From a virus, in the IMG/VR virus record IMGVR_UViG_3300000133_000001, positions 1 through 31,424 of that record: a stretch of 31,424 bases of DNA. The stretch is one strand, 5' to 3'. Made by a program: the position numbers and the translations under genes. This document shows, piece after piece, positions 3,234 through 29,672 of this stretch. The notes beneath the pieces were generated by a model. That model ran no database searches. It was not told where the DNA came from and saw only the letters and a program-made list of their open reading frames with translations. The stretch's first letter is position 1, and each line of letters begins with the position of its first letter.

Positions 3234-3347
3234 ATGAACAGAAAGAAACTAATACAAAAGCTACAACAACTATTAGACAAATTACCAAAGGGTAAAGAAA
3301 GAAAAGCTATAAGAGAAAGACTGTTAAAATTAAAGCTGAATAAATAA
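3234..3347 (+). CDS. Small basic hypothetical ORF (37 aa, MNRKKLIQKLQQLLDKLPKGKERKAIRERLLKLKLNK)
   Basis: Hand-translated and below the track cutoff. It fills the gap between 3226 and the late promoter. Lys/Arg/Leu-rich helix. Confidence 0.35.
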   Translation: MNRKKLIQKLQQLLDKLPKGKERKAIRERLLKLKLNK

Positions 3348-3369
3348 CTTGTTTAATTACGTTATATAA
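3339..3369 (+). promoter_or_regulatory. Putative phage late promoter, copy 1 (AATAAA-N15-CGTTATATAA)
   Basis: CGTTATATAA at 3360-3369 is intergenic, 23 nt upstream of the terS ATG. It aligns without gaps to the four other copies. Confidence 0.6.
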
Positions 3370-3392
3370 TTGAATAAACAAATTTCTATCAA

Positions 3393-3659
3393 ATGGATAA
3401 AAGAAAAAATAACGGTGGTGTAAGGGAAGGTGCTGGCAGACCAAAGAAAGCAGATGAACTAAAACTAATAGAAAAACTTGATAACCTTATAGATAATGAT
3501 GAGGTAATAAAAACACTAGGCAAACAAATACTAAAAGGTGATAGTCGTGCTATGTCGTTGTACTTTGGTTACAGATACGGTAAGCCAAAAGAAAGTGTAG
3601 ACATAACCTCAACAGATGGTTTCAATATTAACTTTAATGATATTATCAAGTTTAAGTGA
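3393..3659 (+). CDS. terS: Terminase small subunit (putative)
   Basis: 88 aa. N-terminal NNGGVREGAGRPKK is the G-x-R-x-GAGRPkk DNA-binding motif common in small terminases. It lies immediately upstream of, and overlaps, terL. Confidence 0.65.
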   Translation: MDKRKNNGGVREGAGRPKKADELKLIEKLDNLIDNDEVIKTLGKQILKGDSRAMSLYFGYRYGKPKESVDITSTDGFNINFNDIIKFK

Positions 3660-4864
3660 TAGAAGTTGATCCAAAGTATAAACCAATCCAAACATCAGAT
3701 GCTAGGTATTATATTGTAACTGGTGGTAGGGGTTCTGGTAAATCGTATTCTATAAACTTACTATTGTTGTTGCTCACTTTTGAAGCTGGGCATACAATCT
3801 TGTTTACTAGGTTTACATTATCATCTGCATACATTTCTATTATACCAGAGTTTATAGACAAGATAGAAACACTTAACTTACAAGATGCTTTTTATATAAC
3901 AAAAGATGAAATACGAAATAAGCTATCTGGTAGCAAGATAATCTTTAAAGGTATCAAGACATCAAGCGGTGACCAAACAGCCAACCTAAAGTCTTTAACT
4001 AATGTTAGCACTTGGGTAATGGATGAAGCAGAAGAACTGCAAGATGAAAACATCTTTGACAAAATAGATTTAAGTGTTAGAAACCTAAACCAAAAGAATA
4101 GGGTAATACTTATTTTAAACCCAGTTACAAAAGAGCATTGGATATACAATAGGTTCTTTGAAGATAAAGGTGTGCAAGCTGGTACAAACACAACCAAAGG
4201 AAATACAACCTACATACACACAACTTATTTAGATAACGTAGAAAACCTATCTAAAAGTTATTTAGAGCAAATAGAAAACATTAAGAAACGCAGACCAGAG
4301 AAATACAAGCACCAAATGCTTGGGGGCTGGTTGGCAAAAGCAGAGGGTGTAATATTCAGTAACTGGCAGATAGGTGAGTTTAAAAAAGTAGGTGTAAGTG
4401 TGTTTGGTCAAGATTATGGTTTTGCATCAGATGAAAATACATTAGTAGAAACTAACATAGATACAAACAACAAGATAATCTATTTAAAGGAGTGCTTTTA
4501 CTTGAAAGGTCTTACCACATCACAAATAGCTGAACTAAACCTTAAACACGCAAAAAACCATCTTATAGTAGGTGATAGTGCTGAACCAAGATTGTTACAC
4601 GAACTGAAAGCAAAAGGTTGCAATGTAGTCAAAGCAATAAAAGGTCAAGGTTCAATTACATACGGCATAGCATTACTACAAGACTATGATCTAGTTGTAG
4701 AAGAAAACAGTATCAACTTAATCAAAGAACTAAACAACTACTCTTGGTTGGAGAAAAAGTCTAAAACACCACAAGACAAATTCAACCACATCATTGATGC
4801 AATCCGTTATAGTGTATCATATCAACTGCAAAACCCAAACAGAGGTAACTACTACATATCTTAA
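3656..4864 (+). CDS. terL: Terminase large subunit (PBSX/XtmB-like)
   Basis: Walker A YYIVTGGRGSGKSYS and Walker B WVMDEAEE. The C-terminal nuclease-type region has conserved Asp residues (VGDSAEP, IIDAIRY). GTG start in a GTGA overlap with terS. Confidence 0.9.
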   Translation: MIEVDPKYKPIQTSDARYYIVTGGRGSGKSYSINLLLLLLTFEAGHTILFTRFTLSSAYISIIPEFIDKIETLNLQDAFYITKDEIRNKLSGSKIIFKGIKTSSGDQTANLKSLTNVSTWVMDEAEELQDENIFDKIDLSVRNLNQKNRVILILNPVTKEHWIYNRFFEDKGVQAGTNTTKGNTTYIHTTYLDNVENLSKSYLEQIENIKKRRPEKYKHQMLGGWLAKAEGVIFSNWQIGEFKKVGVSVFGQDYGFASDENTLVETNIDTNNKIIYLKECFYLKGLTTSQIAELNLKHAKNHLIVGDSAEPRLLHELKAKGCNVVKAIKGQGSITYGIALLQDYDLVVEENSINLIKELNNYSWLEKKSKTPQDKFNHIIDAIRYSVSYQLQNPNRGNYYIS

Positions 4865-4872
4865 ATGTTATG

Positions 4873-4909
4873 CACAATTTTGTTAATAACTAATTTATTT
4901 GTATATTGC
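4873..4909 (+). promoter_or_regulatory. Host-type (Bacteroidota-like) promoter, TTTG-N19-TATATTGC; near-identical copy at 29673..29709
   Basis: TTTG at 4879-4882, a 19-nt spacer, then TATATTGC at 4902-4909. The 19-mer cacaattttgttaataact is identical at 29673-29691. The ATG at 4935 lies 26 nt downstream. Confidence 0.55.
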
Positions 4910-4934
4910 ATTATTATTAACTAACAAAACAGAT

Positions 4935-5129
4935 ATGAAAGAAACAGTAAAATTACCATTAGAAGAATTTAAAAAGCTATATTCTATTAAGATTAGGTTA
5001 GAAACCTACTTTAAGTATATGCAAGATGACAGAGGTGTGTTAAAAGATATTGCACCAACTTTTTTAGATGATGCAAAAGAATACATCAAAGAATACAATG
5101 AACTAACAAATGAAAAATCATATGTATAG
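4935..5129 (+). CDS. Hypothetical protein (64 aa)
   Basis: First ATG after the promoter-like element (MKETVKLPLEEF..). The track start at 4899 would lie inside the promoter element. Confidence 0.55.
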   Translation: MKETVKLPLEEFKKLYSIKIRLETYFKYMQDDRGVLKDIAPTFLDDAKEYIKEYNELTNEKSYV

Positions 5130-5220
5130 TAATTGTTGTGGTGCAGAAGCATCTTATTTAAGTGATGAATTATGTGGTGAGTGTTTAGAACACACTTGCT
5201 TTAACGAAATAGAAGAATAG
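5110..5220 (+). CDS. Small Cys-rich ORF (36 aa; MKNHMYSNCCGAEASYLSDELCGECLEHTCFNEIEE)
   Basis: Hand-translated, below the track cutoff. Five Cys including CxxC. Alternative start at 5122. Confidence 0.4.
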   Translation: MKNHMYSNCCGAEASYLSDELCGECLEHTCFNEIEE

Positions 5221-5222
5221 AT

Positions 5223-5357
5223 ATGAAAAAGATAATAGATAAATTTCTAATTAAAAGAAGCATCAGACCATACAAGATAGTAGCTTTAAGTACTGGTGTA
5301 ATTGTAGAACATTACCGTAATGGTAAATTAAAAACAGAATATTATGGATTGGTATAG
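5223..5357 (+). CDS. Small hypothetical ORF (44 aa; MKKIIDKFLIKRSIRPYKIVALSTGVIVEHYRNGKLKTEYYGLV)
   Basis: Hand-translated. It starts 3 nt after the previous stop and overlaps the next small ORF. Confidence 0.4.
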   Translation: MKKIIDKFLIKRSIRPYKIVALSTGVIVEHYRNGKLKTEYYGLV

Positions 5358-5457
5358 CCCACCAGAGTACAAAGATTATGAATGCACAGAATGTGGTGCA
5401 GATATAGACCACGAGGGTGTGTGTAGTGGCACTTGTCACGAAGCAAGTATGATTTAG
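5344..5457 (+). CDS. Small Cys-rich ORF (37 aa; MDWYSPPEYKDYECTECGADIDHEGVCSGTCHEASMI)
   Basis: Hand-translated. CxxC...CxxxC spacing resembles a zinc ribbon. It is followed by a terminator. Confidence 0.4.
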   Translation: MDWYSPPEYKDYECTECGADIDHEGVCSGTCHEASMI

Positions 5458-5480
5458 TTAAGTTGAGTTAGTTTTGTTTA

Positions 5481-5512
5481 AAAGGTGCATCAGAAATGGT
5501 GTACCTTTTTTT
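5481..5512 (+). terminator. Rho-independent terminator closing the packaging operon
   Basis: aaaggtgca (5481-5489) pairs with tgtaccttt (5500-5508), giving 9 bp with one G-U pair. The loop is 10 nt and a T-run extends to 5512. Confidence 0.7.
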
Positions 5513-5528
5513 ATTATATTTACCTTAC

Positions 5529-5559
5529 TATAAAAAACCATTTTAAAAACGTTATATAA
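5529..5559 (+). promoter_or_regulatory. Putative phage late promoter, copy 2 (TATAAA-N15-CGTTATATAA)
   Basis: CGTTATATAA at 5550-5559 ends 2 nt before the ATG at 5562. It lies just downstream of the 5481-5512 terminator. Confidence 0.65.
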
Positions 5560-5561
5560 GT

Positions 5562-6212
5562 ATGAATATCAATATTACAGTACCAAATGATTTAAGTGAA
5601 ATTACTTTAAGGCAGTATAAGCACTTTCTTAAAATACAGAAAAATGTAGATGATGAGAGTTTTTTAAATGCAAAAATCATTGAAATATTTTGCAAGTTAA
5701 ACCTTGAAGATGTAATGAGGTTGAAGTTTAATGATAGTGAATTAATAGTAAGTACACTTACAGAAATGTTTGAGCAGAAGCCTAACCTAGTTAGAAGTTT
5801 TAAGCTAAACAATATTAACTATGGGTTTCATCCACAACTAGATGATTTAACTTTAGGGGAGTATATAGATTTAGATACCTTTATTGGAGACTGGGAAAAT
5901 ATAGAAAAAGCTATGTCAGTTTTATATAGACCAGTAGTAAACAAGATAAAAGACAAATACACAATAGAAGAATACAAAGTAGGTAAGGATCAAGAGATTT
6001 TAGATATGCCTATGGATGCAGTCTTGTCATCAATTTTTTTTTTGTGGAATTTAGGTCTGGACTTGTCGAAAACTATGATGAATTATTTGGACAAGGATCA
6101 AACACAAGCCTTGACGCAGTATCTAACTTCACAACCAAATGGGGATGGTATAACTCAATTTACGGACTTGCTCAAGGAGACATTACAAGATATGAAAATA
6201 TCACTAAACTAG
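5562..6212 (+). CDS. Structural-module protein, frame-0 product (216 aa); possible tail assembly chaperone-like short form
   Basis: First gene behind late promoter copy 2. It contains the T10 tract at 6034-6043. Its last 56 codons overlap an open -1 frame. Confidence 0.7.
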   Translation: MNINITVPNDLSEITLRQYKHFLKIQKNVDDESFLNAKIIEIFCKLNLEDVMRLKFNDSELIVSTLTEMFEQKPNLVRSFKLNNINYGFHPQLDDLTLGEYIDLDTFIGDWENIEKAMSVLYRPVVNKIKDKYTIEEYKVGKDQEILDMPMDAVLSSIFFLWNLGLDLSKTMMNYLDKDQTQALTQYLTSQPNGDGITQFTDLLKETLQDMKISLN

Positions 6213-6298
6213 GAGTACACGAATGTTTTATGATGCTATCCTTTATGAAAGACAAAGCAGAAGTAGAAGCAAAAAGAATTAAACAAAATTTCAAATGA
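5562..6298 (+). CDS. Putative -1 frameshift or slippage fusion product, join(5562..6041,6041..6298), about 245 aa
   Basis: The -1 frame ORF (..VEFRSGLVENYDELFGQGSN..WGWYNSIYGLAQGDITRYENITKLGVHECFMMLSFMKDKAEVEAKRIKQNFK) ends in an ATGA overlap with the next gene (6295). The frame-0 stop at 6212 leaves an 82-nt gap instead. Confidence 0.45.
6034..6043 (+). other. T10 homopolymer / slippery site (att ttt ttt ttg in frame 0)
   Basis: Ten consecutive T. Frame 0 reads I-F-F-L. The -1 frame is open from 5987 and runs to 6298. Confidence 0.9.
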
Positions 6299-6765
6299 GC
6301 CAACAAGGTATAAGAGGATATTATCAATTAACCTCAACAATAGAAGAACAATTAAGAAGTACTGAATTTACTAATACAGTTTCTATTGGTGACATAAGCA
6401 AAGTGAACCTAAACAAGCAAGACATATTTCCATTAGCACATATGATTGTAAATAGTGTTTCAGCAGAAGAACAAGTGTTGAGGTTTAACATAAGCATCCT
6501 AGCTTGTGATATTGTAGATCAATCAAAGGATATAACAACAGATAGATTTACTGGCAATGATAATGAGCAAGATATTCTAAACACGCAGCTACTAGTCTTA
6601 AACAAGCTAATACAGAAGTTAAGGATGGGTTCATTACATACAGATATGTACCAACTAGATGGCAATCCAAGTTTAACACCATTTAATGATAGGTTTGAAA
6701 ACCAACTTGCTGGATGGAGTGCTACAATGACTATACTAATTTACAATGATATATATATTTGTTAA
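6295..6765 (+). CDS. Hypothetical virion-module protein (156 aa)
   Basis: ATGA-coupled to the -1 frame ORF upstream and TAATG-coupled downstream. No recognisable motif. Confidence 0.7.
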   Translation: MSQQGIRGYYQLTSTIEEQLRSTEFTNTVSIGDISKVNLNKQDIFPLAHMIVNSVSAEEQVLRFNISILACDIVDQSKDITTDRFTGNDNEQDILNTQLLVLNKLIQKLRMGSLHTDMYQLDGNPSLTPFNDRFENQLAGWSATMTILIYNDIYIC

Positions 6766-7295
6766 TGGATTTTAAAAATGTAGATGAGGTTTTAAATGCT
6801 TATGCTGAATATGTAGTAGATAGTGCAAAGAAAAACCTAGTTGATGAAAGAAAAAGTTTAGGTGATTTATATAAATCAGTTAGCTACAAATATGAAAAAA
6901 GCCAAGATCTGTTTTTGTTAGATTTTCTAATGGAAGATTATGGAACTTTTGTAGATAAAGGTGTAAGGGGTAAAACCTCAACCTATCCAGAAACAAGTGC
7001 AGCACTATCACAATTTCAATATGGTAGTGGTAATTTTCCAAAGGGTGGTTTAACAGAGGGTATTAAAGGTTGGTTAGAAAAGAAAAGGTTTCAATGGAGA
7101 GATAAAAAAGGTAAATTTATGAGTTATGATACAATGACTTATTTAATATCAAGATCAATTTACAACAAGGGTTTAAAAGCAAACTTATTCTTTACTACAC
7201 CATTTGAACTAGGTTTACAAAAGTTACCAAAACAATTAACAGATGCTTTTTCACTAGATATAGAAAACGCAATTATACTAGGAACAAAAAAATAA
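6765..7295 (+). CDS. Putative head-tail joining / tail completion protein (HK97 gp10-like)
   Basis: The pattern ..YAEYVVDSAKKNL..GDLYKSV..EDYGTFVDKGVRG.. resembles the HK97 gp10 family (..ak..ap..tG.L..si....ya..vE.G). ATG at 6765 in a TAATG overlap. The track start at 6759 is TTG. Confidence 0.4.
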   Translation: MDFKNVDEVLNAYAEYVVDSAKKNLVDERKSLGDLYKSVSYKYEKSQDLFLLDFLMEDYGTFVDKGVRGKTSTYPETSAALSQFQYGSGNFPKGGLTEGIKGWLEKKRFQWRDKKGKFMSYDTMTYLISRSIYNKGLKANLFFTTPFELGLQKLPKQLTDAFSLDIENAIILGTKK

Positions 7296-7298
7296 GAT

Positions 7299-7442
7299 AT
7301 GGATTGGACATTAGGCATAGCATTTCATTTTCCACATAACAGATTTATGTTAGGTTGGGAGTACATAGCAAAAGATGAAAGGTACACATACACAACAATA
7401 AGACTATATTTATTTATAGCTACACTAACACTAGATTTTTAA
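7299..7442 (+). CDS. Small hypothetical ORF (47 aa; MDWTLGIAFHFPHNRFMLGWEYIAKDERYTYTTIRLYLFIATLTLDF)
   Basis: Hand-translated. It exactly fills the gap between 7295 and 7444. Confidence 0.4.
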   Translation: MDWTLGIAFHFPHNRFMLGWEYIAKDERYTYTTIRLYLFIATLTLDF

Positions 7443-7443
7443 G

Positions 7444-8448
7444 ATGGCATTACAATTAGCATTAAGAAACCCACAGTTTAAATTTATAGTAGCAAGTGCC
7501 GGAGCAAGGTCTGTTGTTTGTACAGTTACTATTGATGGTACATTAAGGTATACACTAACAAAGAATTTACCTTTATCTTTAGTAGCAACTCAAACAGTTA
7601 ATTTTGATATAGCAGAACTTGCAAGAGATTACATAGAGATTACCTACCAAAGTAGTTATGTGCCACAGACTGTTGATATAGAAACAAACCTAAAAAGCTA
7701 TAATGCAATAAATGGTGGTGGTACTGTAATAGATGAACCAGCTACAATAACAGATAGAGGTTTTGAAGCCTATGGAACATTTGAAGAAGAAGTAAATCCA
7801 ACTATACCTTTTGGCAGAACTACACCTACTTACTTAATACCTATAAATGAAGATACAGATACCTTTACAATATTTGCACCTAATAACAGAGCTGGCAAAT
7901 TACCAAGCATAACTGCTTTAAATGGTTTAGTGGTAACACCTTATACAAGCACAGATACAAGTATAACAAATGTTGATGGTGTTGTATGTAACATTAAAAG
8001 GATTGATTGCACAAAGTATGGTGAGGGTAACAAAATTATCTACATAAACAAATATGGTGTGCAACAAGATTTATGGTTCTTTTTAAAAGAAACTAAAAAC
8101 CTAGCACGAACTAATGAGGGTTACAAGTCAAATACAATAACCTATCCAAGTGGTTCAAGTGCTACATATAATGTACAAAATGCACCTAACAAAGTATTCA
8201 ACACACAAGCAAAACAAACACACACATTAAGTAGTGGATATTATCCAGAGTTTGCTAACCAACAATTTGAAGAATTACTATTAAGCGAATACGTTTGGTT
8301 ATCGACTGTTAGAAAAGGAAGTGGGATAATCATACCAGTTAAAGTTAAAACCTCAACAGTAGCCTTTAAAACAAGTGTAAACGATAGATTAATAGAGTAC
8401 ACTATGGAATTTGAAGAAGCCTTTGATTATATAAACAACATTAGATAA
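7444..8448 (+). CDS. Virion structural protein (334 aa), putative tail/baseplate component
   Basis: Thr/Asn/Ser/Val-rich, beta-type composition. It abuts the next gene (TAA then ATG). No enzymatic motif. Confidence 0.6.
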   Translation: MALQLALRNPQFKFIVASAGARSVVCTVTIDGTLRYTLTKNLPLSLVATQTVNFDIAELARDYIEITYQSSYVPQTVDIETNLKSYNAINGGGTVIDEPATITDRGFEAYGTFEEEVNPTIPFGRTTPTYLIPINEDTDTFTIFAPNNRAGKLPSITALNGLVVTPYTSTDTSITNVDGVVCNIKRIDCTKYGEGNKIIYINKYGVQQDLWFFLKETKNLARTNEGYKSNTITYPSGSSATYNVQNAPNKVFNTQAKQTHTLSSGYYPEFANQQFEELLLSEYVWLSTVRKGSGIIIPVKVKTSTVAFKTSVNDRLIEYTMEFEEAFDYINNIR

Positions 8449-10608
8449 ATGCGTAGACTACAGCTATACATAGGTACTGAAAGGGTAGATTTATTTAAGG
8501 ATGAAACAGTTTCACTTACACAAACAATCCAAAATGTAAAGGATATTGCAAAGGTGTTTACCGAGTTTACACAAACATTTGCAGTACCAGCATCTAAAGA
8601 AAACAATATAATATTTCAGCACTATTATAACTTTGATATTGATTTTGGTTTTGATGCAAGAAATAAAGCTGATGCAAGATTAGAGTTAAATGATTTGCCT
8701 TTTAAGAATGGTAAGATAAAACTTAATAGTGTTGATTTAAAAAACAATGTTGCTCATACATATCACATTACTTTCTTTGGTAATACGGTAAACCTTAAAG
8801 ATGTTTTAGGCGATGACTTGTTGAGTAGTTTGGGTGCATTAGATGATAATTCACAAGTATATGCCTACCAAGATATTGTAGATATATTACAAGGATTTCC
8901 AACTGGGAATAATAATATTGTAGTGCCTTTAATCTCACATACAAATAGACTTATTTATAATTCCGGTTCACATACAACATATGACCCAGAAGCAACAACA
9001 AATAATATAAGCCATCACGGTACTGGAACACAAAACCAAAATGGTGTAGATTGGAAGCAATTCAAATATGCTTTAAGAGTACAAGCTATAATTGATGCAA
9101 TAGAAAGTAAATACACTATTGCAAATGGCTATGGTTCAGATATTGTTTTTTCAGATGATTTTTTTAATGATACTACTAATGAAGAATTTGATGATTTATT
9201 TATATGGTTGCATAGAAAAAAAGGTAATGTAGAAACACCAAGCTTCGGAGATGCGAGTTGGACATCAGTAACAGAATTAGGAACAGAAACAACAAGTGGT
9301 GATTATGATGAAATGACACCCGTTGGATTTATTGAATTTGGAAATTTAAATATTGATACATCAAATGGAGATTATAGCCTAGATACACCACAAGTAGATT
9401 TATTATTTACACCTACAAATCTTTTATTAGCTTATGATATTAGAGTAACAGAAACAAACACCGGAACTACGGTAACAGAAAATGGTGTTTCTGGACAATA
9501 TCCTTTTTATACAAATGAACAATTACCCGATGGTACATATACAATAGAAATCAGAAGTGATGTGTTGGTGCAATTTGGAGCGGGTGGTATTAAATGGACA
9601 CTAGATGCAGAAGAAAGAGATGATGAACAACAATCATTAAATGGCTCTGTTGTATTTGAAAATGCTGCAACATTTGGAACTAGTGCGGTATTTGAGTTTA
9701 ATATCACACAACAAATACCTAAAATTAAGACTATAGATTTTTTATCTGGCTTATTTAAAATGTTTAACCTTACTGCCTTTGTGAATGATGTGGGGACAAT
9801 AGTTGTAAGAACTTTGGATAGTTATTATGCAGCGGGTTCACAAACACCAATAAACATAGATAAATATTTAGATACTAAAACATCAAAGGTTGAGGTTGCA
9901 TTGCCTTTTAAAGAAATAAATTTTAGTTATAAAGGTTTAGGTACTTTATTCGCTAAACAATTTGAACAAATATATAATTCCGGTTGGGGTTCTATAAGCT
10001 ATAAATTAAACAATAGAATATATGATGCACCAACAGAAAATTATAAAGTGGAACTGCCTTTTGAGCATATGCAATATGAAAGACTTTATGATATTGACCC
10101 AAGTGGATCTGGAGCATCAACTACAGTACAATATGGTTATTTTGTAGATGATAATTTTGAACCTTACTATGGTGAACCTTTATTATTCTATCCTATCCTA
10201 AACAATGGTACATCAATAAGAATTAGAGATTATGATACCGGAGCTGCACCAGATGATATAACAAGATATTTTATACCATCAAATAGTTTGGCATTGTCTT
10301 GCCCAACAAGTAAAGTAAACATACATTTTCAAAATGAATATAATGAATATACAGTTAGGGAAGTTGGTGACCCAGGTTGTTTTACAGATACTTTATTTGA
10401 AACTAAATACAAGACTTATATTCAAGATGTGTTTAATGAAAAAAGAAGATTAATAAAAGTAACTGCTTTTCTACCTATGAAAGTTTATTATGATCTGGAA
10501 TTAAATGATTTGATAGAGTTGGGACAAGATAGTTACAAAATAAATTCTCTTAAAACAGATTTAACAACCGGTAAAACAGAATTAGAATTATTAAACACAA
10601 TATTATGA
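8449..10608 (+). CDS. Large virion structural protein (719 aa), putative tail tip / baseplate hub
   Basis: Size and position between the 334-aa structural protein and the tape-measure-like gene. No catalytic motif recognised. Confidence 0.6.
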   Translation: MRRLQLYIGTERVDLFKDETVSLTQTIQNVKDIAKVFTEFTQTFAVPASKENNIIFQHYYNFDIDFGFDARNKADARLELNDLPFKNGKIKLNSVDLKNNVAHTYHITFFGNTVNLKDVLGDDLLSSLGALDDNSQVYAYQDIVDILQGFPTGNNNIVVPLISHTNRLIYNSGSHTTYDPEATTNNISHHGTGTQNQNGVDWKQFKYALRVQAIIDAIESKYTIANGYGSDIVFSDDFFNDTTNEEFDDLFIWLHRKKGNVETPSFGDASWTSVTELGTETTSGDYDEMTPVGFIEFGNLNIDTSNGDYSLDTPQVDLLFTPTNLLLAYDIRVTETNTGTTVTENGVSGQYPFYTNEQLPDGTYTIEIRSDVLVQFGAGGIKWTLDAEERDDEQQSLNGSVVFENAATFGTSAVFEFNITQQIPKIKTIDFLSGLFKMFNLTAFVNDVGTIVVRTLDSYYAAGSQTPINIDKYLDTKTSKVEVALPFKEINFSYKGLGTLFAKQFEQIYNSGWGSISYKLNNRIYDAPTENYKVELPFEHMQYERLYDIDPSGSGASTTVQYGYFVDDNFEPYYGEPLLFYPILNNGTSIRIRDYDTGAAPDDITRYFIPSNSLALSCPTSKVNIHFQNEYNEYTVREVGDPGCFTDTLFETKYKTYIQDVFNEKRRLIKVTAFLPMKVYYDLELNDLIELGQDSYKINSLKTDLTTGKTELELLNTIL

Positions 10609-10748
10609 TTAAGAATATAATAGACTTATTGCAAGTTGTTGAGGCTGATACTGAAAACATAAGAATAGCACAAGGAAAATATAAATTAGCAGAAACCTTA
10701 AAAGAGGGTTACAATCAAATTAAAAGAGATTTAAAATGGCAAAAGTAG
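10605..10748 (+). CDS. Small hypothetical ORF (47 aa; MIKNIIDLLQVVEADTENIRIAQGKYKLAETLKEGYNQIKRDLKWQK)
   Basis: Hand-translated. ATGA overlap with 8449..10608 and a 13-nt overlap with the next gene. Confidence 0.4.
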   Translation: MIKNIIDLLQVVEADTENIRIAQGKYKLAETLKEGYNQIKRDLKWQK

Positions 10749-12379
10749 TAGAGGTTCAATTAATTGCTAAAACAGATGATGCAGTTGCTGGGGTTAATAA
10801 GGTAGATCAAGCAGTAAATAAAACTGGTAGGTCAGCTAAAAAGACTAACAAAGAACTTTCAGCCTTTTCAGAGGGTGGTAAACAACTAGTAAGTGCATTA
10901 GATAGACAAACTGGTGGGCTTGCATCTAAATTTGTTGCAGTAGGTAAGGCTGCAAAGTTAAGCGGTAAGGCTATGAAAACGGCTTTAATATCTAGTGGTA
11001 TTGGTTTGGCAGTTGTTGCAGTTGGATTGCTTGTTGAATATTGGGATGAAATAGGTGAAGCATTAGGGTTTATAAATAAAGATTTAGAAAATCAAGCTAT
11101 TGAAATAAATAAATCTATTGAAGCAAGTAATATAAAATTAGCATCATTAAAAAATCAACAAACTATACTTGAATTACAAGATAAAAGCACAACAAATATT
11201 AAAAATTCAATAAAAGAAGAATTGCTTTTGCAAGTACAGAAAAATGTTGAACTTTTAAAAAATCTACAAACACAATTAGAATTAGAAAAAAATAGCCAAA
11301 AAGAAGTAGGCTTTTTAGAAAAGGCTGCGTTTTGGGTTGGTACAAGACTTGGAAGCACAACAGCCCTAGCCTTTGCAGCAAGAGATATAACTAAAGAAAA
11401 CGAAAGACAAGAGGAAATACAAGAACAAATAAACAAAGCAAATACACAAGCAGAAAATCTTGCAATTTCATTGTTACAATTAGATAAAAAAGCTAATGAT
11501 GAAAAACAAAAAGCAGCAGATGAAGCAAACAAAGCAGTAGAAGAAGCAAATAGAAAAGCAAAAGAAGCTGAAAAAGAAAGGGTTGATGCTATTGAAAGAA
11601 TAAGAAAAGGTTTAATAGATACAGAGGCAGAAGAACGTGCAGAAAAATTAAGGCTAATTAAAGAAGATTATAATCAACAAATAGCATTAGCAGCAGAATT
11701 TTATGGAGCAAATTCAATAAAGATACTAGAATTAAAAGCAGCACAAAAAGCAGCAGAAGATCAACAACAAGCAGAATTTGATGAGCAAGATAAAGCAAGG
11801 CAAGATAAACTTGACGAAGAAGAAAAAAAGAGAAAAGAAAAACAATTAGCAGATGACAAGAAAATATCTGATGCAGCTATTAAAATTGCAGAATTAGAAG
11901 AAGAAGCTAAAAGAACATCATTAGAGGGTTATGCTGGTGCTATAAATAGTTTATCAAATACAATAGGTCAAGAAACTGCTGCTGGTAAAGGTTTGGCAGT
12001 TGCATCTTCATTAATAAATACCTATGCTGCTATAACTGGACAATTAAAAACTGCTGCTGGTTCACCGGGTGGTGCTATACCGGGTTATGCTATCGCACAA
12101 GCTATTGCAACGGGTGTTGCTGGTTTTGCTGCTGTTAAAAAGATTGTTGCCGTACAAGTGCCAGGAGGTGGCGGAAGTGGTTCAAGTCAAACTGGTTCGT
12201 TGCCTACAGTACCTACACCACCAGCATTTAATGTAGTAGGAGCAAGTGGAGAAACACAACTAGCAGATGCAATAGGTAGCCAAACACAAAGACCAGCAAG
12301 AGCATACGTTGTATCTAATGATGTAACAACTGCACAAGAAATGGATAGAAACATTATAGAGGGTGCTAGTATAGGCTAA
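10736..12379 (+). CDS. Tape-measure-like protein (547 aa)
   Basis: Hydrophobic segment ALISSGIGLAVVAVGLLV. A long Glu/Lys/Ala/Gln coiled-coil (..KAADEANKAVEEANRKAKEAEKER..). C-terminal Gly/Ala-rich hydrophobic block (AGKGLAVASSLINTYAAITGQL..GVAGFAAVKKIV). Confidence 0.55.
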   Translation: MAKVVEVQLIAKTDDAVAGVNKVDQAVNKTGRSAKKTNKELSAFSEGGKQLVSALDRQTGGLASKFVAVGKAAKLSGKAMKTALISSGIGLAVVAVGLLVEYWDEIGEALGFINKDLENQAIEINKSIEASNIKLASLKNQQTILELQDKSTTNIKNSIKEELLLQVQKNVELLKNLQTQLELEKNSQKEVGFLEKAAFWVGTRLGSTTALAFAARDITKENERQEEIQEQINKANTQAENLAISLLQLDKKANDEKQKAADEANKAVEEANRKAKEAEKERVDAIERIRKGLIDTEAEERAEKLRLIKEDYNQQIALAAEFYGANSIKILELKAAQKAAEDQQQAEFDEQDKARQDKLDEEEKKRKEKQLADDKKISDAAIKIAELEEEAKRTSLEGYAGAINSLSNTIGQETAAGKGLAVASSLINTYAAITGQLKTAAGSPGGAIPGYAIAQAIATGVAGFAAVKKIVAVQVPGGGGSGSSQTGSLPTVPTPPAFNVVGASGETQLADAIGSQTQRPARAYVVSNDVTTAQEMDRNIIEGASIG

Positions 12380-12380
12380 A

Positions 12381-12411
12381 TGCAAAATTAAAAACTAAAC
12401 ACGTTATATAT
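12381..12411 (+). promoter_or_regulatory. Putative phage late promoter, copy 3 (TGCAAA-N15-CGTTATATAT)
   Basis: CGTTATATAT at 12402-12411 ends 2 nt before the ATG at 12414. AAATGCAAAA at 12378-12387 is shared with copy 4 at identical spacing. Confidence 0.65.
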
Positions 12412-12413
12412 TT

Positions 12414-13004
12414 ATGAGGATAATAGAACTTATTTTAGATGAAGAAGATTTGGATGCTGGAGTAGAAGCGATTTCTATCGTAGAAAGCCCAGCCATTGAA
12501 AGTGACTTTGTTGCATTAAAGAACCAAGAAATAAAGTTAGCAGAAGTAGACAAAGAAAAGAAGATATTAATGGGTGCTTTATTAATACCAGACAAGCCTA
12601 TTTACAGAAATGGTTCAGAGGGTGAGTATTACATATTCTTTTCAAAAGATACTATTGTAAAAGCATCTCAAATGTTCTTACAGAATGGAAACCAAAGTAG
12701 ATCAACACTAGAACACGCACAAGCACTTAATGGTTTAACATTAGTTGAAAGCTGGATAGTAGAAGATAAAGCCAAAGACAAGACTGCATTGTATGGTTTA
12801 GATGTACCGGTTGGAACTTGGATGGGATCAGTCAAAGTCAATAATGATGATGTTTGGAATGAGTATGTAAAGACAAACAAGGTAAAAGGATTTTCTATCG
12901 AGGGTTACTTTGCAGATAAAATGGAAGCACCTAAAGAAGCTATAGAAGAACAAATGGCTGAACAATTATTAAACCAAATAAAAACAATAATAACACAAAT
13001 ATAA
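12414..13004 (+). CDS. XkdF-like putative prohead serine protease (Peptidase_S78_2-like)
   Basis: AISIVESPAIESDFVALK, ..ILMGALLIPDKPIY..YYIFFSKDTIVKASQMFL..STLEH..LVESWIV.. and ..VKGFSIEGYF follow the PBSX XkdF-family pattern. The gene sits in the head module. Confidence 0.65.
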   Translation: MRIIELILDEEDLDAGVEAISIVESPAIESDFVALKNQEIKLAEVDKEKKILMGALLIPDKPIYRNGSEGEYYIFFSKDTIVKASQMFLQNGNQSRSTLEHAQALNGLTLVESWIVEDKAKDKTALYGLDVPVGTWMGSVKVNNDDVWNEYVKTNKVKGFSIEGYFADKMEAPKEAIEEQMAEQLLNQIKTIITQI

Positions 13005-13005
13005 A

Positions 13006-13491
13006 ATGAAAAGTAGATTAGAAAAAATTTATAGCAAACTACCAAACCAAAAAGTAGACCTTAAAGCACAAAAGGTAGATTTAAGTTTAATTAGTGAATT
13101 GGAAAGTGCTTTAAGCAATGTACAATCATTTGATAAAGCTGAAAATGACTTTAATGATGTGGTTGAGACTGCCAAAAAATTTAATAGTCTTTTAAATCAA
13201 ATAAGACCAGTTGCAAGAGAGTTTATTAGTGAATATGATAGTCTTAAAAAAGATTATGATGGTTTAGCAAATGCAACAGAAAACTTTAAAGATAGAATAT
13301 TTGAATATCAAATTGGTTTAAGAGAATTAGGATTAGATGATATGTCTGACCAAGTTAAAAACTATTATGATGAATTGTCATATTGGGAAATTTTAGATAG
13401 CAAAATATTTAATTATAACTATCAACAAGAAGAACTTGTGGGAGTAGACTTTACAAGCCTAATGAGTTGGGCAAAAGACATAGAAGAATAA
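13006..13491 (+). CDS. Hypothetical head-module protein (161 aa)
   Basis: Starts 2 nt after the protease stop. Helical, acidic composition. Confidence 0.65.
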   Translation: MKSRLEKIYSKLPNQKVDLKAQKVDLSLISELESALSNVQSFDKAENDFNDVVETAKKFNSLLNQIRPVAREFISEYDSLKKDYDGLANATENFKDRIFEYQIGLRELGLDDMSDQVKNYYDELSYWEILDSKIFNYNYQQEELVGVDFTSLMSWAKDIEE

Positions 13492-13495
13492 ATAA

Positions 13496-13657
13496 ATGCA
13501 AAGAAACAACAAAAATAAAACTTTTATACCTAGTAGAACATCACCTACTGGGGGTGGACGTGCTTGTTTATGTTGGGATACCAACAAGTATTCTATTTCT
13601 TGTTGTGATGGTTCTATGCAAGCACAAGGTATTGGTGTAATAACAAGAACAGATTGA
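13496..13657 (+). CDS. Small Cys-rich ORF (53 aa; MQRNNKNKTFIPSRTSPTGGGRACLCWDTNKYSISCCDGSMQAQGIGVITRTD)
   Basis: Hand-translated, below the track cutoff. It fills most of the 13492-13696 gap on the + strand, where the track shows only an antisense ORF (13459..13665). Confidence 0.45.
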   Translation: MQRNNKNKTFIPSRTSPTGGGRACLCWDTNKYSISCCDGSMQAQGIGVITRTD

Positions 13658-13660
13658 AAA

Positions 13661-13691
13661 TGCAAAAAGTAAATTAATAATCGTTATATAA
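13661..13691 (+). promoter_or_regulatory. Putative phage late promoter, copy 4 (TGCAAA-N15-CGTTATATAA)
   Basis: CGTTATATAA at 13682-13691 ends 5 nt before the ATG at 13697. AAATGCAAAA at 13658-13667. Confidence 0.65.
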
Positions 13692-13696
13692 ATAGT

Positions 13697-14293
13697 ATGG
13701 AAAAAACAAAAATGTTAAATCAAATTAGAACACTTTTAAACATCGAGGTAAAACTTGAAGAAATGAAGTTGGAAAACGGTACTGTAGTAAGTGCTGATAC
13801 ATTTGAAAAAGGAAGTGAAATTTTTATTGTCACAGACGATGAGAAAGTAGCAATGCCAGTAGGGGAATATATCCTTGAAGATGGTAGATTGGTTGTAGTA
13901 TCTGAAGAAGGTATGATTGCAGATGTCAGAGAAGTATCTGATGAAGTACCAGCTAAAGAAGAAACAGAAGATCTTGAAGAAGAAACTGTTGAAACAGAAG
14001 TACCAGCAGAGGTTGCTACAGAAGTTGAAGCAATTATTGAAGCAGTAGTTGAGGTTATTGCCCCAGTACTTGAAGAAGTAAAATCTGAAATTGAAGAACT
14101 TAAAAAAGAGTTTGGAAAAATGAGAAAATACGAAGACGAAAAAGAAGAAGACAAGAAAGAAGAAATGTCTGCTGCTAGAAAACCAATTAAACACAATCCA
14201 GAAGCAAAAGCACCACAAAAAAAACAAATGCAATTTGGTAAAGGACAATTCAACACAACACTAGATAGAGTATTAAATAAATTAAACAAATAA
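13697..14293 (+). CDS. Acidic scaffolding-like protein (198 aa)
   Basis: Immediately upstream of the capsid gene. Long Glu/Val/Ala-rich acidic helical region (EETEDLEEETVETEVPAEVATEVEAIIEAVVEV..) with a basic tail. Confidence 0.55.
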   Translation: MEKTKMLNQIRTLLNIEVKLEEMKLENGTVVSADTFEKGSEIFIVTDDEKVAMPVGEYILEDGRLVVVSEEGMIADVREVSDEVPAKEETEDLEEETVETEVPAEVATEVEAIIEAVVEVIAPVLEEVKSEIEELKKEFGKMRKYEDEKEEDKKEEMSAARKPIKHNPEAKAPQKKQMQFGKGQFNTTLDRVLNKLNK

Positions 14294-14294
14294 A

Positions 14295-15272
14295 ATGAAA
14301 AAAAGAAACGTAAATTTAGCGACAACCACTAACATAACGACTACGTATGCTGGAGAATTTGCTGGTGAGTATATCGCAGCGGCTTTATTATCTGCATCAA
14401 CAATTGATGATGGTGGTTTAACAGTAAAGGCAAACATCGCTTTTAAGGAAGTAATCAAGAAACTAGCTACAAATGCTTTGGTTCAACCAGCAACTTGTGA
14501 TTTTTCACCAACATCTACAATTACACTTACTGAAAGAATAATTACCCCCGTTGAGTTGGGTGTTTCGTTACAACTTTGTAAGTATGATTTTGTGAACGAT
14601 TGGGAGGCGCAATCTATGGGTTATGGTCTTGGTCAAACATTACCTCCAAAGTTTTCTGACTTTATGATTGCACACGTTGCATCTGAAGTAGCACAAAACA
14701 CAGAGTTTTGTATCTGGCAAGGTGATACGGCAGCGGGAACAAACAATTCTTTTGATGGGTTTGAAAAACTAATTGCAGCATCAGCAGCAGCGGGAGATAT
14801 TCCAGCGGCACAACAAGTAGCAGCAGTAGCTGGTGGATTGTTATCTACAAACATCATTGATGAACTTTCTAAAGTAGTTGATGCAATACCAGCAGCACTA
14901 TATGGAAAAGAAGATTTATTCTTATACATCGGAACTAAAGCAGCTAAACTATATGTACAAGCACTAGGTGGTTTTGGAGCAAATGGTTTAGGAGCAAATG
15001 GTGTGGCAAATATGGGAACGCAATGGTGGAACAATGGAAGCCTAACGGTGAATGGTGTAAAAATCTTTGTATGTCCGGGAATGTCTGACAACAAAATGTA
15101 TGCAGCACAACGTTCTAACTTATACTTTGGTACTGGGTTACTAAATTCAACAAACGAAGTAAAAGTACTAGATATGGCAGATTTAGATGGATCAAACAAT
15201 GTACGTATGATTATGAGATTTACATCAGCAGTACAATTCGGAATTTCATCTGATTTAGTAGAGTACGCATAA
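14295..15272 (+). CDS. Major capsid protein (HK97-fold type)
   Basis: 325 aa with a sequence pattern typical of HK97-family capsids (..TYAGEFAGEYI..VELGVSLQLCKYDF..FCIWQGDTAAG..FDGFEKLI..LFLYIGTKAAKLY..MIMRFTSAVQFG). It follows the scaffold-like gene and is followed by a strong terminator. Confidence 0.8.
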   Translation: MKKRNVNLATTTNITTTYAGEFAGEYIAAALLSASTIDDGGLTVKANIAFKEVIKKLATNALVQPATCDFSPTSTITLTERIITPVELGVSLQLCKYDFVNDWEAQSMGYGLGQTLPPKFSDFMIAHVASEVAQNTEFCIWQGDTAAGTNNSFDGFEKLIAASAAAGDIPAAQQVAAVAGGLLSTNIIDELSKVVDAIPAALYGKEDLFLYIGTKAAKLYVQALGGFGANGLGANGVANMGTQWWNNGSLTVNGVKIFVCPGMSDNKMYAAQRSNLYFGTGLLNSTNEVKVLDMADLDGSNNVRMIMRFTSAVQFGISSDLVEYA

Positions 15273-15291
15273 TTAATTAATTAATCAATAG

Positions 15292-15329
15292 AAAGGGGTG
15301 GGTAGGTAATCTGCTCACCCTTTTTTTTT
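15292..15329 (+). terminator. Strong rho-independent terminator after the capsid gene
   Basis: gggtgggtag (15296-15305) pairs with ctgctcaccc (15311-15320), giving 10 bp with two G-U pairs. The loop is gtaat, followed by T9 at 15321-15329. It is preceded by a (TAAT)n run containing stop codons. Confidence 0.85.
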
Positions 15330-15345
15330 AAAACAAATAAAAACA

Positions 15346-15867
15346 ATGGCTTGTACATTAACAACGGGTAGAAAACTACCTTGCAAAAGTGCTTTTGGTG
15401 GCATTAAAAGAGTTTACTTTGCTGATTATGGTGACCTTACTGCAATCACAGTAGATGCTCCAACTGGTGAAGCAACATTTACGGGAACACCAACTTGGTA
15501 TGAATATGATGTAAAAGGTAATTCATCTTTAGAAACTACTGTGACAAGTAGCAGAGAAAATGGAACAACTTTTTATACTCAAACTTTAAACCTTACATTA
15601 ACATATCTAGATGCTTTAACGCAACAACAACTACAAACACTTGCAGTAGCAAGACCATATGTAGTAGTAGAAGATTACTATGGAAATAGCTTCTTATGTG
15701 GCTTTGAGAATGGTATGGAGTGTACGGGTGGTACAGTCGTGACTGGGGCTGCCGCTGGAGACCTCTCGGGCTTTACTTTAACGTTTGAGGGTATGGAAGA
15801 AACTGCACCTTATTTCCTTGCAACAGCAGTAACTGGAGATGCAGCACAGATTGACCCAACTGCATAA
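15346..15867 (+). CDS. Putative major tail (tube) protein (173 aa)
   Basis: N-terminus ..GRKLPCKSAFGGIKRVYFADYGDL.. and C-terminus ..GGTVVTGAAAGDLSGFTLTFEGMEETAPYF.. resemble siphovirus tube-protein patterns. It is flanked by terminators and has no late-promoter box of its own. Confidence 0.45.
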   Translation: MACTLTTGRKLPCKSAFGGIKRVYFADYGDLTAITVDAPTGEATFTGTPTWYEYDVKGNSSLETTVTSSRENGTTFYTQTLNLTLTYLDALTQQQLQTLAVARPYVVVEDYYGNSFLCGFENGMECTGGTVVTGAAAGDLSGFTLTFEGMEETAPYFLATAVTGDAAQIDPTA

Positions 15868-15887
15868 TTAATATTTATTTTAAATTG

Positions 15888-15917
15888 AAAGCATCCTTAA
15901 TCGGGTGCTTTTTTTTT
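15888..15917 (+). terminator. Rho-independent terminator
   Basis: aaagcatcc (15888-15896) pairs with gggtgcttt (15903-15911), giving 9 bp with one G-U pair. The loop is ttaatc and the T-run extends to 15917. Confidence 0.8.
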
Positions 15918-15922
15918 GTTTT

Positions 15923-15953
15923 TACAAATTACTATTTTTTATACGTTATATAA
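15923..15953 (+). promoter_or_regulatory. Putative phage late promoter, copy 5 (TACAAA-N15-CGTTATATAA)
   Basis: CGTTATATAA at 15944-15953 ends 3 nt before the ATG at 15957. It lies directly after the 15888-15917 terminator. Confidence 0.65.
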
Positions 15954-15956
15954 GTA

Positions 15957-16346
15957 ATGATATTATTTAACACAACTGCCACAAATCAATTTACTATAAT
16001 ACCTAGAGATTATGTATCAAATGCATATATGACTATTAGAGATGATAGCACAAATGTAACTGTTGATTATACATTAGTACCTAGAGTTGCTGGTAGTGGT
16101 AATATTGAAATTTCAAATGATACCTACAATGTATATAATGATACCTATTCAAATTTAGTTGAGGGGCATTTTTATGATTTAACTATATATTCAGACATAG
16201 CAAAAACAAATGTAATATATAAGGATAGGATTTTCTGTACTGCACAAAAAGCAGAAATTGATGCAGATAACAATTATTTCTATAAAGTAAATAAAGACCA
16301 ATATACAGAATACGATGGTTTCAATAATGACTATATTGTAATATGA
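15957..16346 (+). CDS. Hypothetical virion-module protein (129 aa)
   Basis: First gene behind late promoter copy 5. ATGA overlap with the portal gene. Confidence 0.65.
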   Translation: MILFNTTATNQFTIIPRDYVSNAYMTIRDDSTNVTVDYTLVPRVAGSGNIEISNDTYNVYNDTYSNLVEGHFYDLTIYSDIAKTNVIYKDRIFCTAQKAEIDADNNYFYKVNKDQYTEYDGFNNDYIVI

Positions 16347-18966: not shown

Positions 18967-19166
18967 TGGCAAACGAAATATATTATAAAAGTTGGTGGGG
19001 CAGAGGTGTTTGTGATAATACTGTTGGCTGGGGTATTGTGTACAAAATCTATGCGGGTTGTAGTGCAGTACCAGCATTGTTAGAATTACTTAAAGCAAGG
19101 GCAACGTATTATGAAAATGAGGCTTGTACAACCTCAATATTAGATGAATTAGAAATTATACAATAA
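18966..19166 (+). CDS. Hypothetical protein (66 aa, Cys/Trp-containing)
   Basis: Start and stop are coupled to both neighbours (TAATG overlaps). Confidence 0.6.
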   Translation: MANEIYYKSWWGRGVCDNTVGWGIVYKIYAGCSAVPALLELLKARATYYENEACTTSILDELEIIQ

Positions 19167-25013: not shown

Positions 25014-25030
25014 AATACTTTTCCTAAATC

Positions 25031-25120
25031 ATTATCTTTTAAGTATATTATTATTTTTTTTAATATATATTTTTAGATTTATATTTATATATATATTTCT
25101 AATTATTTATTTTATATATT
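25031..25120. other. Extreme AT tract (4 G/C in 90 nt) at the late/early boundary
   Basis: Counted directly. Reiterated (A)TATATTT units, and a TATATTTG (-7-like) box immediately downstream at 25115-25122. Confidence 0.8.
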
Positions 25121-25122
25121 TG

Positions 25123-25160
25123 AAGTAATAAAAAAGTGTAAAGTTATTACTTATATTTTT
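25123..25160 (+). terminator. Weak AT-rich hairpin plus T-run (possible terminator)
   Basis: aagtaataa (25123-25131) pairs with ttattactt (25144-25152). The loop is 12 nt, followed by atattttt. The stem has only one G-C pair. Confidence 0.3.
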
Positions 25161-25176
25161 AAAAAACAAATAAAAG

Positions 25177-25305
25177 ATGGAAAACACAAAATGTATTCAA
25201 GTAAGAAAAGATTATTACTTACTAATTGTAGATGATAAATCACTAGGTGAGTTTGAAAGAAGTGAGTTAAGACATATTTTAGAAGTTATAGATAATGCCA
25301 TCTAA
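25177..25305 (+). CDS. Small hypothetical ORF (42 aa; MENTKCIQVRKDYYLLIVDDKSLGEFERSELRHILEVIDNAI)
   Basis: Hand-translated. It overlaps the NinG-like start by 11 nt. Confidence 0.4.
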   Translation: MENTKCIQVRKDYYLLIVDDKSLGEFERSELRHILEVIDNAI

Positions 25306-25690: not shown

Positions 25691-25734
25691 TTCGTTACAT
25701 TTGACTATTCTGTTTTGTTAAGGGAAAGGGGTTT

Positions 25735-25759
25735 GGCTTTATGTCAAGCCTTTTTTTTT
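25735..25759 (+). terminator. Rho-independent terminator (short stem, T9)
   Basis: ggctt (25735-25739) pairs with aagcc (25746-25750). The loop is tatgtc, followed by T9 at 25751-25759. Confidence 0.55.
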
Positions 25760-27929: not shown

Positions 27930-27930
27930 T

Positions 27931-29667: not shown

Positions 29668-29672
29668 TTGTA

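Follow-up and report, generated by a model that had tools for sequence, protein, structure and literature searches.

A two-block element precedes the packaging and structural genes

The window analyzed here is a 31,424-nucleotide (nt) stretch of viral DNA (IMG/VR record IMGVR_UViG_3300000133_000001, positions 1 to 31,424), and all coordinates refer to it. It carries five copies of a two-block element that ends in the box CGTTATATAW and stands before packaging, tail, and head genes. It also encodes a predicted extracytoplasmic function (ECF)-type sigma factor (27931 to 28407), which we propose reads these elements as late promoters. Positions 1 to 300 are repeated exactly at 30702 to 31001, and the overlap runs on to 31424. 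The window therefore holds an entire phage genome, 30,701 bp long, and not a fragment; this genome is either circularly permuted or terminally redundant. Its G+C content is 32%, and practically all of its genes are on the plus strand. The phage appears to be a Flavobacteriia siphophage and distant kin of Nonlabens phage P12024S.

We called the genes of the late region from PHROGs and Pfam and designated the five putative promoters P1 to P5; all of these features are on the plus strand. P1 (3339 to 3369) consists of AATAAA at 3339 to 3344, a 15-nt spacer, and CGTTATATAA at 3360 to 3369, and it precedes a terS-like gene (ATG at 3393) and the TerL gene (3656 to 4864; PHROGs). P2 (5529 to 5559) pairs TATAAA (5529 to 5534) with CGTTATATAA (5550 to 5559) and heads the operon at 5562 to 12379, a block of structural or tail-like genes that includes one for a tape-measure-like protein. 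P3 (12381 to 12411), with TGCAAA at 12381 to 12386 and CGTTATATAT at 12402 to 12411, lies upstream of an XkdF-type prohead protease gene (12414 to 13004; Pfam Peptidase_S78_2, 5.7e-14). P4 (13661 to 13691) has TGCAAA at 13661 to 13666 and CGTTATATAA at 13682 to 13691; it is followed by a gene at 13697 to 14293 and by the probable capsid gene at 14295 to 15272. P5 (15923 to 15953), made up of TACAAA at 15923 to 15928 and CGTTATATAA at 15944 to 15953, heads a series that runs from 15957 to 16346 and the portal gene (16343 to 18382) through the tail genes, among them one for a 1396-amino-acid (aa) tail protein (19166 to 23356), and the endolysin (23950) and holin (24552) genes to about 25013.

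We found that CGTTATATAW occurs exactly five times in the genome (3360, 5550, 12402, 13682, and 15944), each time on the plus strand and between genes. Shuffled sequences predict 0.17 occurrences, and five copies were reached in 0 of 100 shuffles. The bipartite form YAAA-N15-CGTTATATA also has five matches, with 0.00 expected, and the 10-mer with one mismatch has 13 matches versus 7.7 expected, which is no enrichment. When we scanned both strands with a position matrix built from relatives, the five sites scored 22 to 39 bits, with P5 at the top (39 bits), and the next best position scored −1.7. This gap of more than 24 bits indicates that there is no sixth copy in the genome. The initial annotation had listed five intergenic plus-strand boxes at these positions and no further copy, and both statements hold, as does its observation that copies 3 and 4 have a 10-mer in common (AAATGCAAAA). 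It had also placed the box 2 to 5 nt from the ATG in four of five cases; we measured 2, 2, 5, and 3 nt at P2 to P5 and 23 nt at P1.

The spacer is 15 nt long at all five sites. With offsets counted from the C of CGTTAT, the upstream hexamers of copies 1 to 5 (AATAAA, TATAAA, TGCAAA, TGCAAA, and TACAAA) lie at −21 to −16. CGT is invariant across the five sites, as in the −10 element of ECF promoters, and a rigid spacer length combined with a free spacer sequence is what is expected of an ECF-type bipartite promoter. The upstream block, T-R-Y-A-A-A, keeps the C and AAA and not the AAC of a GGAAC-like −35 element.

The consensus of Bacteroidota σA promoters is TTTG-N19-TAnnTTTG, with TTTG at −33 and the second element as the −7 box (PMC9723704). 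None of the five boxes has a −7 TAnnTTTG or a −33 TTTG, in agreement with the earlier description of the box as unlike host promoters. A perfect example of the host type, TTTG-N19-TATATTTG, is present elsewhere, at 25769 to 25799 on the plus strand directly after a terminator (25721 to 25759), and is a probable early promoter. Terminators had also been reported just ahead of copies 2 and 5, and at both places we found intrinsic-terminator-like hairpins with T runs on the plus strand. The first, with 13 pairs (5480 to 5519; hairpin, 5480 to 5509), closes the P1 operon and the moron-like cassette behind it and ends 40 nt from box 2. The second, with 10 pairs (15887 to 15922; hairpin, 15887 to 15912), closes the P4 operon and ends 30 nt from box 5. 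Transcription therefore needs to be re-initiated at P2 and P5.

Both blocks are conserved before orthologous genes in related phages

We compared the window with about 240 IMG/VR contigs, 80 each from searches with the portal protein, TerL, and the sigma factor, the sigma set partly overlapping the others. The portal and TerL searches each gave more than 590 relatives, of which 80 loci were used. CGTTATA was found on the plus versus the minus strand 189 versus 37 times in the portal loci and 184 versus 29 times in the TerL loci, a five- to six-fold excess on the coding strand. Among 123 unique sites from relatives with 63 to 90% portal identity, the upstream block read T-R-C-A-A-A at −21 to −16, with the C (−19) in 120 of the 123 and each A at −18 to −16 in about 121, and the second block read CGTTATATA. 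Spacer columns −13 to −9 held about 0 to 0.2 bits. TAAA is found consistently at sites 1 and 2 across relatives and CAAA at sites 3 to 5, so the conserved core is YAAA, which is in register at 226 of 235 unique related sites.

Each promoter is kept at its own gene. P1 was found before orthologues of the gene at 3393 in 75 of the 80 TerL-anchored loci, with 33 to 37 nt from the C of the box to the ATG, and P5 before orthologues of the gene at 15957 in 72 of the 80 portal-anchored loci (12 to 15 nt). P2 precedes orthologues of the gene at 5562 in 54 loci, with a distance of 12 nt in all 54, P3 those of the gene at 12414 in 29 loci (12 to 13 nt), and P4 those of the gene at 13697 in 42 loci (12 to 16 nt). 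The initial annotation had placed the boxes at the first genes of late blocks, and the same orthologous gene starts carry both blocks in relatives. Its TRYAAA block 15 nt upstream is upheld as a second block at a fixed 15-nt distance; its sequence needs amending, since the core is YAAA, within TRCAAA at sites 3 to 5 and WATAAA at sites 1 and 2.

At least 120 IMG/VR stretches contain an exact match to CAAA-N15-CGTTATATA-N3-ATG. This pattern was also found on a 100,721-bp viral contig (IMGVR_UViG_3300028591_000138), versus about 30 kb for the phages of this analysis; this contig could be another type of phage with the same promoter, or the match could be due to chance.

The box is coupled to the start codon

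The ATG lies elsewhere than at offset 12 in 141 unique sites; 120 of them have T at offset 11, and 134 have a purine at offset 12. This T-purine step resembles the pyrimidine-purine signature of positions −1 and +1, and we infer a putative transcription start site (TSS) at offset 12. We take the flipped-out −10 base to be one of the T's of CGTT, as in σE-type structures. In ECF promoters the TSS lies about 10 nt past the flipped-out base (PMC7776599), and the conserved T-purine step falls where this geometry puts it. With +1 at offset 12, CGTTAT occupies −12 to −7, CGT −12 to −10, and YAAA −31 to −28. The ATG itself is at offset 12 at sites 2 and 3, which rules out a TSS further downstream and leaves CGTTAT, rather than the TATATA half, as the seat of the −10 function. 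For the same reason there is no space for another core promoter downstream of the box.

We also found that sequence variation among relatives, measured as entropy by codon position, follows the order third > first > second from codon 2 on. The ATG adjacent to the box is therefore the true start. We predict +1 at the first base of the start codon for P2 (ATG at 5562) and P3 (ATG at 12414), at A15956 for P5, at A13694 for P4, and at G3372 for P1, giving leaders of 0, 0, 1, 3, and 21 nt, respectively. Four of the five late mRNAs would thus be leaderless or nearly so. The fixed distance from the C to the ATG, the T-purine step, and the onset of coding at the adjacent ATG together strengthen this prediction. 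Extending it to the whole clade is a closer call, which we put forward tentatively and with slightly more doubt than belief: across a very large clade of marine Flavobacteriia siphophages, late promoters may be fused to start codons, with +1 either on the A of the AUG or within 1 to 3 nt of it. Nearly all late operons would then start with a leaderless gene, in a phylum in which leaderless mRNAs are otherwise rare.

A predicted ECF-type sigma factor is encoded in the early/middle region

The open reading frame (ORF) at 27931 to 28407 (plus strand; 158 aa) had been named as the candidate regulator. Within the early/middle region, it is preceded by the host-type promoter at 25769 to 25799 and by a terminator at 27045 to 27075. 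Its AlphaFold2 model (pLDDT, 80.6) contains two helical bundles joined by a low-confidence linker (residues 83 to 96), which is the two-domain σ2-σ4 layout, lacking σ1.1 and σ3, of ECF sigma factors; its length also fits (about 150 to 200 aa in that group). When we searched the PDB with this model using Foldseek, the first 25 or so matches were all ECF sigma factors, with 150 to 170 aligned columns, and included RpoE-NepR, SigL, SigH, AlgU, SigW, σE, SigK, and BldN.

The sequence family gave similar results. An exhaustive profile search recovered 821 representative homologues, and several homologues 85 to 90% identical to the ORF carry the JGI label "sigma24 family." A profile of 65 family members matched SigR region 2 and full-length SigL, SigE, and SigW in the PDB (E = 7e-4 to 4e-3). 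Of these 65, 25 matched Sigma70_r2 and 12 matched Sigma70_r4_2 in Pfam, and in NCBIfam 61 matched TIGR02937 (sigma70-ECF), 57 matched NF058625, and 51 matched TIGR02985. In NCBIfam the ORF of the window matched sigma models and nothing else, below the curated cutoffs. A narrow profile of close homologues found only Dmd in the PDB (E = 0.34), which we discarded as spurious; the wider profile was needed. From the modeled fold, the family profiles, and the NCBIfam matches, we conclude that this ORF most probably encodes a divergent ECF-type sigma factor, as had been suspected.

The ORFs adjacent to the sigma gene have no match to anti-sigma factors. At 27919 to 27933, CGTTAAAATGATATG puts CGTTA 12 nt ahead of the sigma gene's ATG, and GTAAA stands 14 nt upstream. 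We considered this sequence as an autoregulatory promoter and rejected it: it scores −4.1 bits, overlaps the coding sequence of the gene before it, and has no counterpart ahead of the homologous gene, gp33, of P12024S.

A sister motif and a sigma homologue are present in P12024S

The only cultured relatives of the phage are the Nonlabens (Persicivirga) phages P12024S and P12024L (genus Inhavirus), with 36% portal identity. In bacterial assemblies, homologues of the sigma factor are nearly all on phage-sized contigs of Bacteroidota metagenome-assembled genomes (MAGs; Flavobacteriaceae, Crocinitomicaceae, and Flavobacterium). Because of these cultured relatives and the MAG origin of the sigma homologues, we place the host in the Flavobacteriia, or at a minimum in the Bacteroidota. 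A megablast search of the late region against 50,697 GenBank phages gave no match, nor did a tblastn search of the same phages with the sigma factor, and gp33 of P12024S was reached through the portal match and its annotation (Sigma-70 region 2, PF04542). The two proteins align over their full lengths with 24% identity (E = 1e-9).

P12024S resembles the window in its one-directional gene layout, in encoding this sigma homologue, and in having boxes ahead of the ATGs of late genes. Seven of these genes (gp01, 05, 08, 35, 41, 44, and 45) are preceded by AAAACAAA-N13/14-CGTTA(A/C)TA, which can also be written ACAAA-N13/14-CGTTAATA, at positions 167, 3019, 5400, 21269, 23949, 25189, and 26790 of NC_018271, where the record has no annotation. 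The C of the box is 11 to 13 nt from the ATG. The pattern ACAA-N13-18-CGTTAMTA has five matches in P12024S versus 0.14 expected, all on the plus strand. P12024S differs from the window in its −10 variant, CGTTAATA and not CGTTATATA, and in its spacer of 13 to 14 nt, not 15; its upstream block AAAACAAA contains AAC. In the searchable literature, which did not cover the genome announcement, we found no description of the P12024S motifs.

Contigs with sigma factors 22 to 31% identical to that of the window have CGTTATAT or CGTTTTAT 12 to 16 nt ahead of ATGs. CGTTA is common to the window, P12024S, and these other lineages, and the 13- to 14-nt spacing of P12024S recurs in several distant sigma-bearing lineages. 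We found the motif and a phage sigma factor together in every reasonably complete relative examined, including P12024S, and their co-occurrence, judged from sequence, appears broad over deep divergence. In a search for covariation of sigma and motif in distant lineages, one query gave no loci and another gave one locus. The distant lineages recovered keep nearly the same CGTTATAT box, so that they speak for co-occurrence only, and no covariation could be demonstrated.

A model for late transcription and its alternatives

We consider it probable that the five boxes are late promoters of the phage, read by its own ECF-type sigma factor, with +1 at offset 12. According to this model, host RNA polymerase with host σA would transcribe the early/middle region, including the sigma gene, from promoters like that at 25769 to 25799. 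The phage sigma factor would then steer the host core enzyme to P1 to P5, with σ4 reading T-R-Y-A-A-A and σ2 reading CGTTAT, a CGT-type −10 element typical of ECF sigma factors. P1 would serve packaging, P2 the tail and structural genes, P3 and P4 the head, and P5 the portal, tail, and lysis genes. Of these five late operons, four would open with leaderless or near-leaderless mRNA that is translated without an upstream ribosome-binding region. Flavobacteria do not use Shine-Dalgarno initiation (PMC9723704), and leaderless mRNAs that are driven by ECF sigma factors and start with A are known in Actinobacteria (PMC7776599).

Several points weigh against this model. The −35-like YAAA differs from the canonical ECF GGAAC/AAC, and the ECF spacer is usually quoted as 16 to 18 nt and is 15 nt here, a difference that hinges on where the elements are taken to begin and end. 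The nearly invariant C of sites 3 to 5 is missing from sites 1 and 2, AAA carries limited information in an A-rich genome, and many of the related sites are orthologous, so that their counts are not independent events. The Foldseek E values are modest (from 2e-3) and the TM scores low (about 0.35 to 0.44), the latter as expected of two flexibly linked domains. On its own, the ORF matches eight NCBIfam sigma models (4.6e-6 to 1e-2), all under the curated cutoffs, and it has no sigma match in Pfam or in PHROGs. No convincing box stands ahead of the sigma gene, so the usual ECF autoregulation is absent. Several of the most distant sigma-bearing contigs, among the ten Bacteroidota MAG loci recovered with the sigma profile, showed no CGT box in the 20 kb covered. 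Flavobacteria have few leaderless mRNAs, about 5.5% of the total in Flavobacterium psychrophilum (PMC9723704).

The boxes might instead be ECF-type promoters read by a sigma factor of the host, with the phage ORF acting as a decoy, an anti-sigma target, or a sigma factor for middle genes. Flavobacteria encode several to dozens of ECF sigma factors, a CGT −10 element is generic to these proteins, and F. psychrophilum has a CGT-type promoter class, SM6 (PMC9723704). The phage family is closest to Bacteroidota ECF models (NF058625 GFO_1088/PG0214, 57 of 65 members; TIGR02985, 51 of 65), and the motif hardly varies between lineages whose sigma factors are only 22 to 31% identical. Against this stand the occurrence of a phage sigma factor with the motif in each of the reasonably complete relatives, P12024S among them, the fact that ECF sigma factors are normally kept inactive by anti-sigma factors, and the fragility of a lytic phage that relies on a host stress sigma factor for all of its structural genes. 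We regard a host ECF sigma factor as unlikely. A signal at the level of RNA or translation, with a TSS further upstream and CGUUAUAUAA by the AUG serving as an initiation enhancer or a RegA-type operator, seems somewhat less likely still. The coupling to the ATG over 12 to 16 nt, kept at four sites over deep divergence, would fit such a signal, as would the reliance of Bacteroidota initiation on A/U-rich unstructured leaders (PMC6847099). It would leave unexplained the second block 15 nt upstream across an unconserved spacer of fixed length, which is a signature of DNA and sigma recognition, and the full motif retained at site 1, 33 nt from the ATG. Sites 2 and 5 are only 20 to 40 nt past strong terminators with no promoter-like element between, and the phage has a sigma gene, whereas we identified no RNA-binding regulator and Rfam searches were empty.

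We give little credence to the idea that a late activator or repressor binds the box and acts together with host σA holoenzyme, class II-like, over a weak host promoter. Many phages do drive their late genes with activators, and the TATATAA half is A/T rich and resembles a −10 or −7 region. However, TTTG/TAnnTTTG is not found in or near the boxes, yet it is present at other intergenic sites of the genome. The ATG at offset 12 forces the −10 function into CGTTAT; taking TATATA as the −10 hexamer instead would push the TSS of sites 2 and 3 into the start codon or past it. Least probable of all is that the repeats are nonfunctional, either remnants of recombination at module boundaries or a chance A/T-rich likeness. 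The genome is 32% G+C, the 10-mer is A/T rich but for its CG, and one-mismatch variants are not enriched. The excess of exact copies (5 versus 0.17 expected; 0.00 for the bipartite form), the strict strand bias, the restriction of conservation to the two blocks and the T-purine step while the flanks drift, the sister motif in P12024S, and the recurrence of CAAA-N15-CGTTATATA-N3-ATG in at least 120 IMG/VR stretches all speak against it. We prefer late promoters read by the phage sigma factor because none of the other explanations covers the bipartite footprint with its fixed spacer, the T-purine step, and the co-occurring sigma factor together.

Relation to known sigma factor systems

It is textbook knowledge that phages can turn on their late genes with sigma factors of their own. 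In T4, gp55 and gp33 act at late promoters (TATAAATA), and in SPO1 the gp28 and gp33/34 cascades do the same; in each case a phage sigma factor replaces that of the host for late genes. T4 late promoters have no −35 element and use the sliding clamp as an activator, and gp55 is a truncated σ2-like protein. The window resembles T4 in that its −10 motif is A/T rich and rather like TATAAATA. In contrast to the single −10 element of T4, it has a −35-like block at fixed spacing, and its sigma factor has a σ4 domain. We identified no analogue of the clamp or of gp33 in the window.

In phage phiEco32, and likewise in phage 7-11, a small protein of the sigma-70 family (gp36) redirects the host core RNA polymerase to a repeated phage motif before structural operons. 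The phiEco32 motif (consensus, tAATGTAtA) can be found by aligning intergenic regions (PMC4331800). By analogy, the window would encode the same functional kind of switch as phiEco32 gp36, T4 gp55, and the SPO1 cascade. The phiEco32 promoter is a single −10-like element without a −35 element, in a proteobacterial host, whereas that of the window is bipartite (YAAA-N15-CGTTATATA) and abuts the start codon. Unlike the host of phiEco32, the host phylum of the window has a σA that uses TTTG/TAnnTTTG, and we liken the protein to gp36 by function and not by homology. The system thus differs from these phage sigma factors in its two-block, ECF-like promoter, in the phylum of its host, and in the locking of the promoter to the start codon.

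The predicted protein shares the σ2-σ4 fold with cellular ECF (group 4) sigma factors such as Bacillus subtilis SigW and SigM, Escherichia coli σE, and Mycobacterium tuberculosis SigL and SigH. The proposed promoters also resemble those of cellular ECF sigma factors, and Flavobacterium SM6, in having two blocks at a fixed distance and a conserved CGT around −10 (PMC9723704), and ECF sigma factors need near-consensus promoters (PMC7776599). Unlike cellular ECF systems, the sigma factor of the window is phage borne, with no anti-sigma factor recognized and no clear autoregulatory promoter. Its −35 block is YAAA/TRCAAA and not GGAAC, conservation of the −10 block runs through TATATA, and its regulon would be the whole late region. 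We found no earlier description of the motif or of a sigma regulon in flavobacterial phages in the searchable literature.

Marine Flavobacteriia are major degraders of the carbon of algal blooms, and to our knowledge almost nothing is known about transcription control in their phages. The system described here provides a concrete, predicted sigma-promoter pair that is common to hundreds of uncultured phage contigs and to the cultured P12024S. The motif marks the starts of late operons and the true start codons, which aids annotation of these phages. It also predicts systematic leaderless expression in a phylum with unusual translation initiation. If this is correct, late messages of the phage could reach the ribosome by a route of their own, possibly a privileged one, and the sigma factor, promoter, and leaderless start would form a compact orthogonal module for the genetics of Bacteroidota, in which standard tools work poorly. 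The coupling of promoter to start codon is unusual, conserved, and directly testable in one cultured system.

Other features of the genome

The early/middle region begins at about 25.3 kb and, passing over the genome end, continues to 3.2 kb; it includes genes for NinG, an AAA ATPase, nuclease-like ORFs, a 5′-3′ exonuclease, a DNA methyltransferase, and a PAPS-reductase-like protein. Rfam and tRNA scans of the window were empty. A scan for the E. coli sigma-70 consensus gave 85 matches versus 82 expected and was uninformative.

Host-type promoters of the TAnnTTGY type are present at 4879 to 4909 and 29679 to 29709. They lie within a 45-nt direct repeat (4867 to 4911 and 29667 to 29711; 84% identical) that is intergenic in both copies and reads as TTTG-N19-TATATTGC, a promoter type corresponding to the TAnnTTGY variant, motif SM5, of F. 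psychrophilum. One copy directly follows TerL, and the other is in the early/middle region before 29706/29879. The first of these promoters belongs to a moron-like cassette (4865 to 5520) between the P1 operon and P2, which also has the strong terminator at 5480 to 5509 as its own. The cassette holds small ORFs, including some for Cys-rich peptides (CxxC type; about 5140 to 5460), and its ORFs have no family match.

A further terminator-like hairpin (15296 to 15316) directly follows the probable capsid gene. The next gene (15346 to 15867) has no box and so would depend on read-through. An attenuator after the capsid gene is a usual way to raise capsid mRNA over that of downstream genes.

Several internal direct repeats lie in the gene for the 1396-aa tail protein, among them 21359 to 21447 with 22811 to 22899, and others at 19558, 19876, and 22159; they suggest duplicated receptor-binding or fiber modules. 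The late and early regions meet in a 281-nt intergenic stretch (25014 to 25294) that separates the holin gene from NinG. It is very A/T rich, with TATATA runs and T tracts, and might serve as an origin of replication, in packaging, or in regulation.

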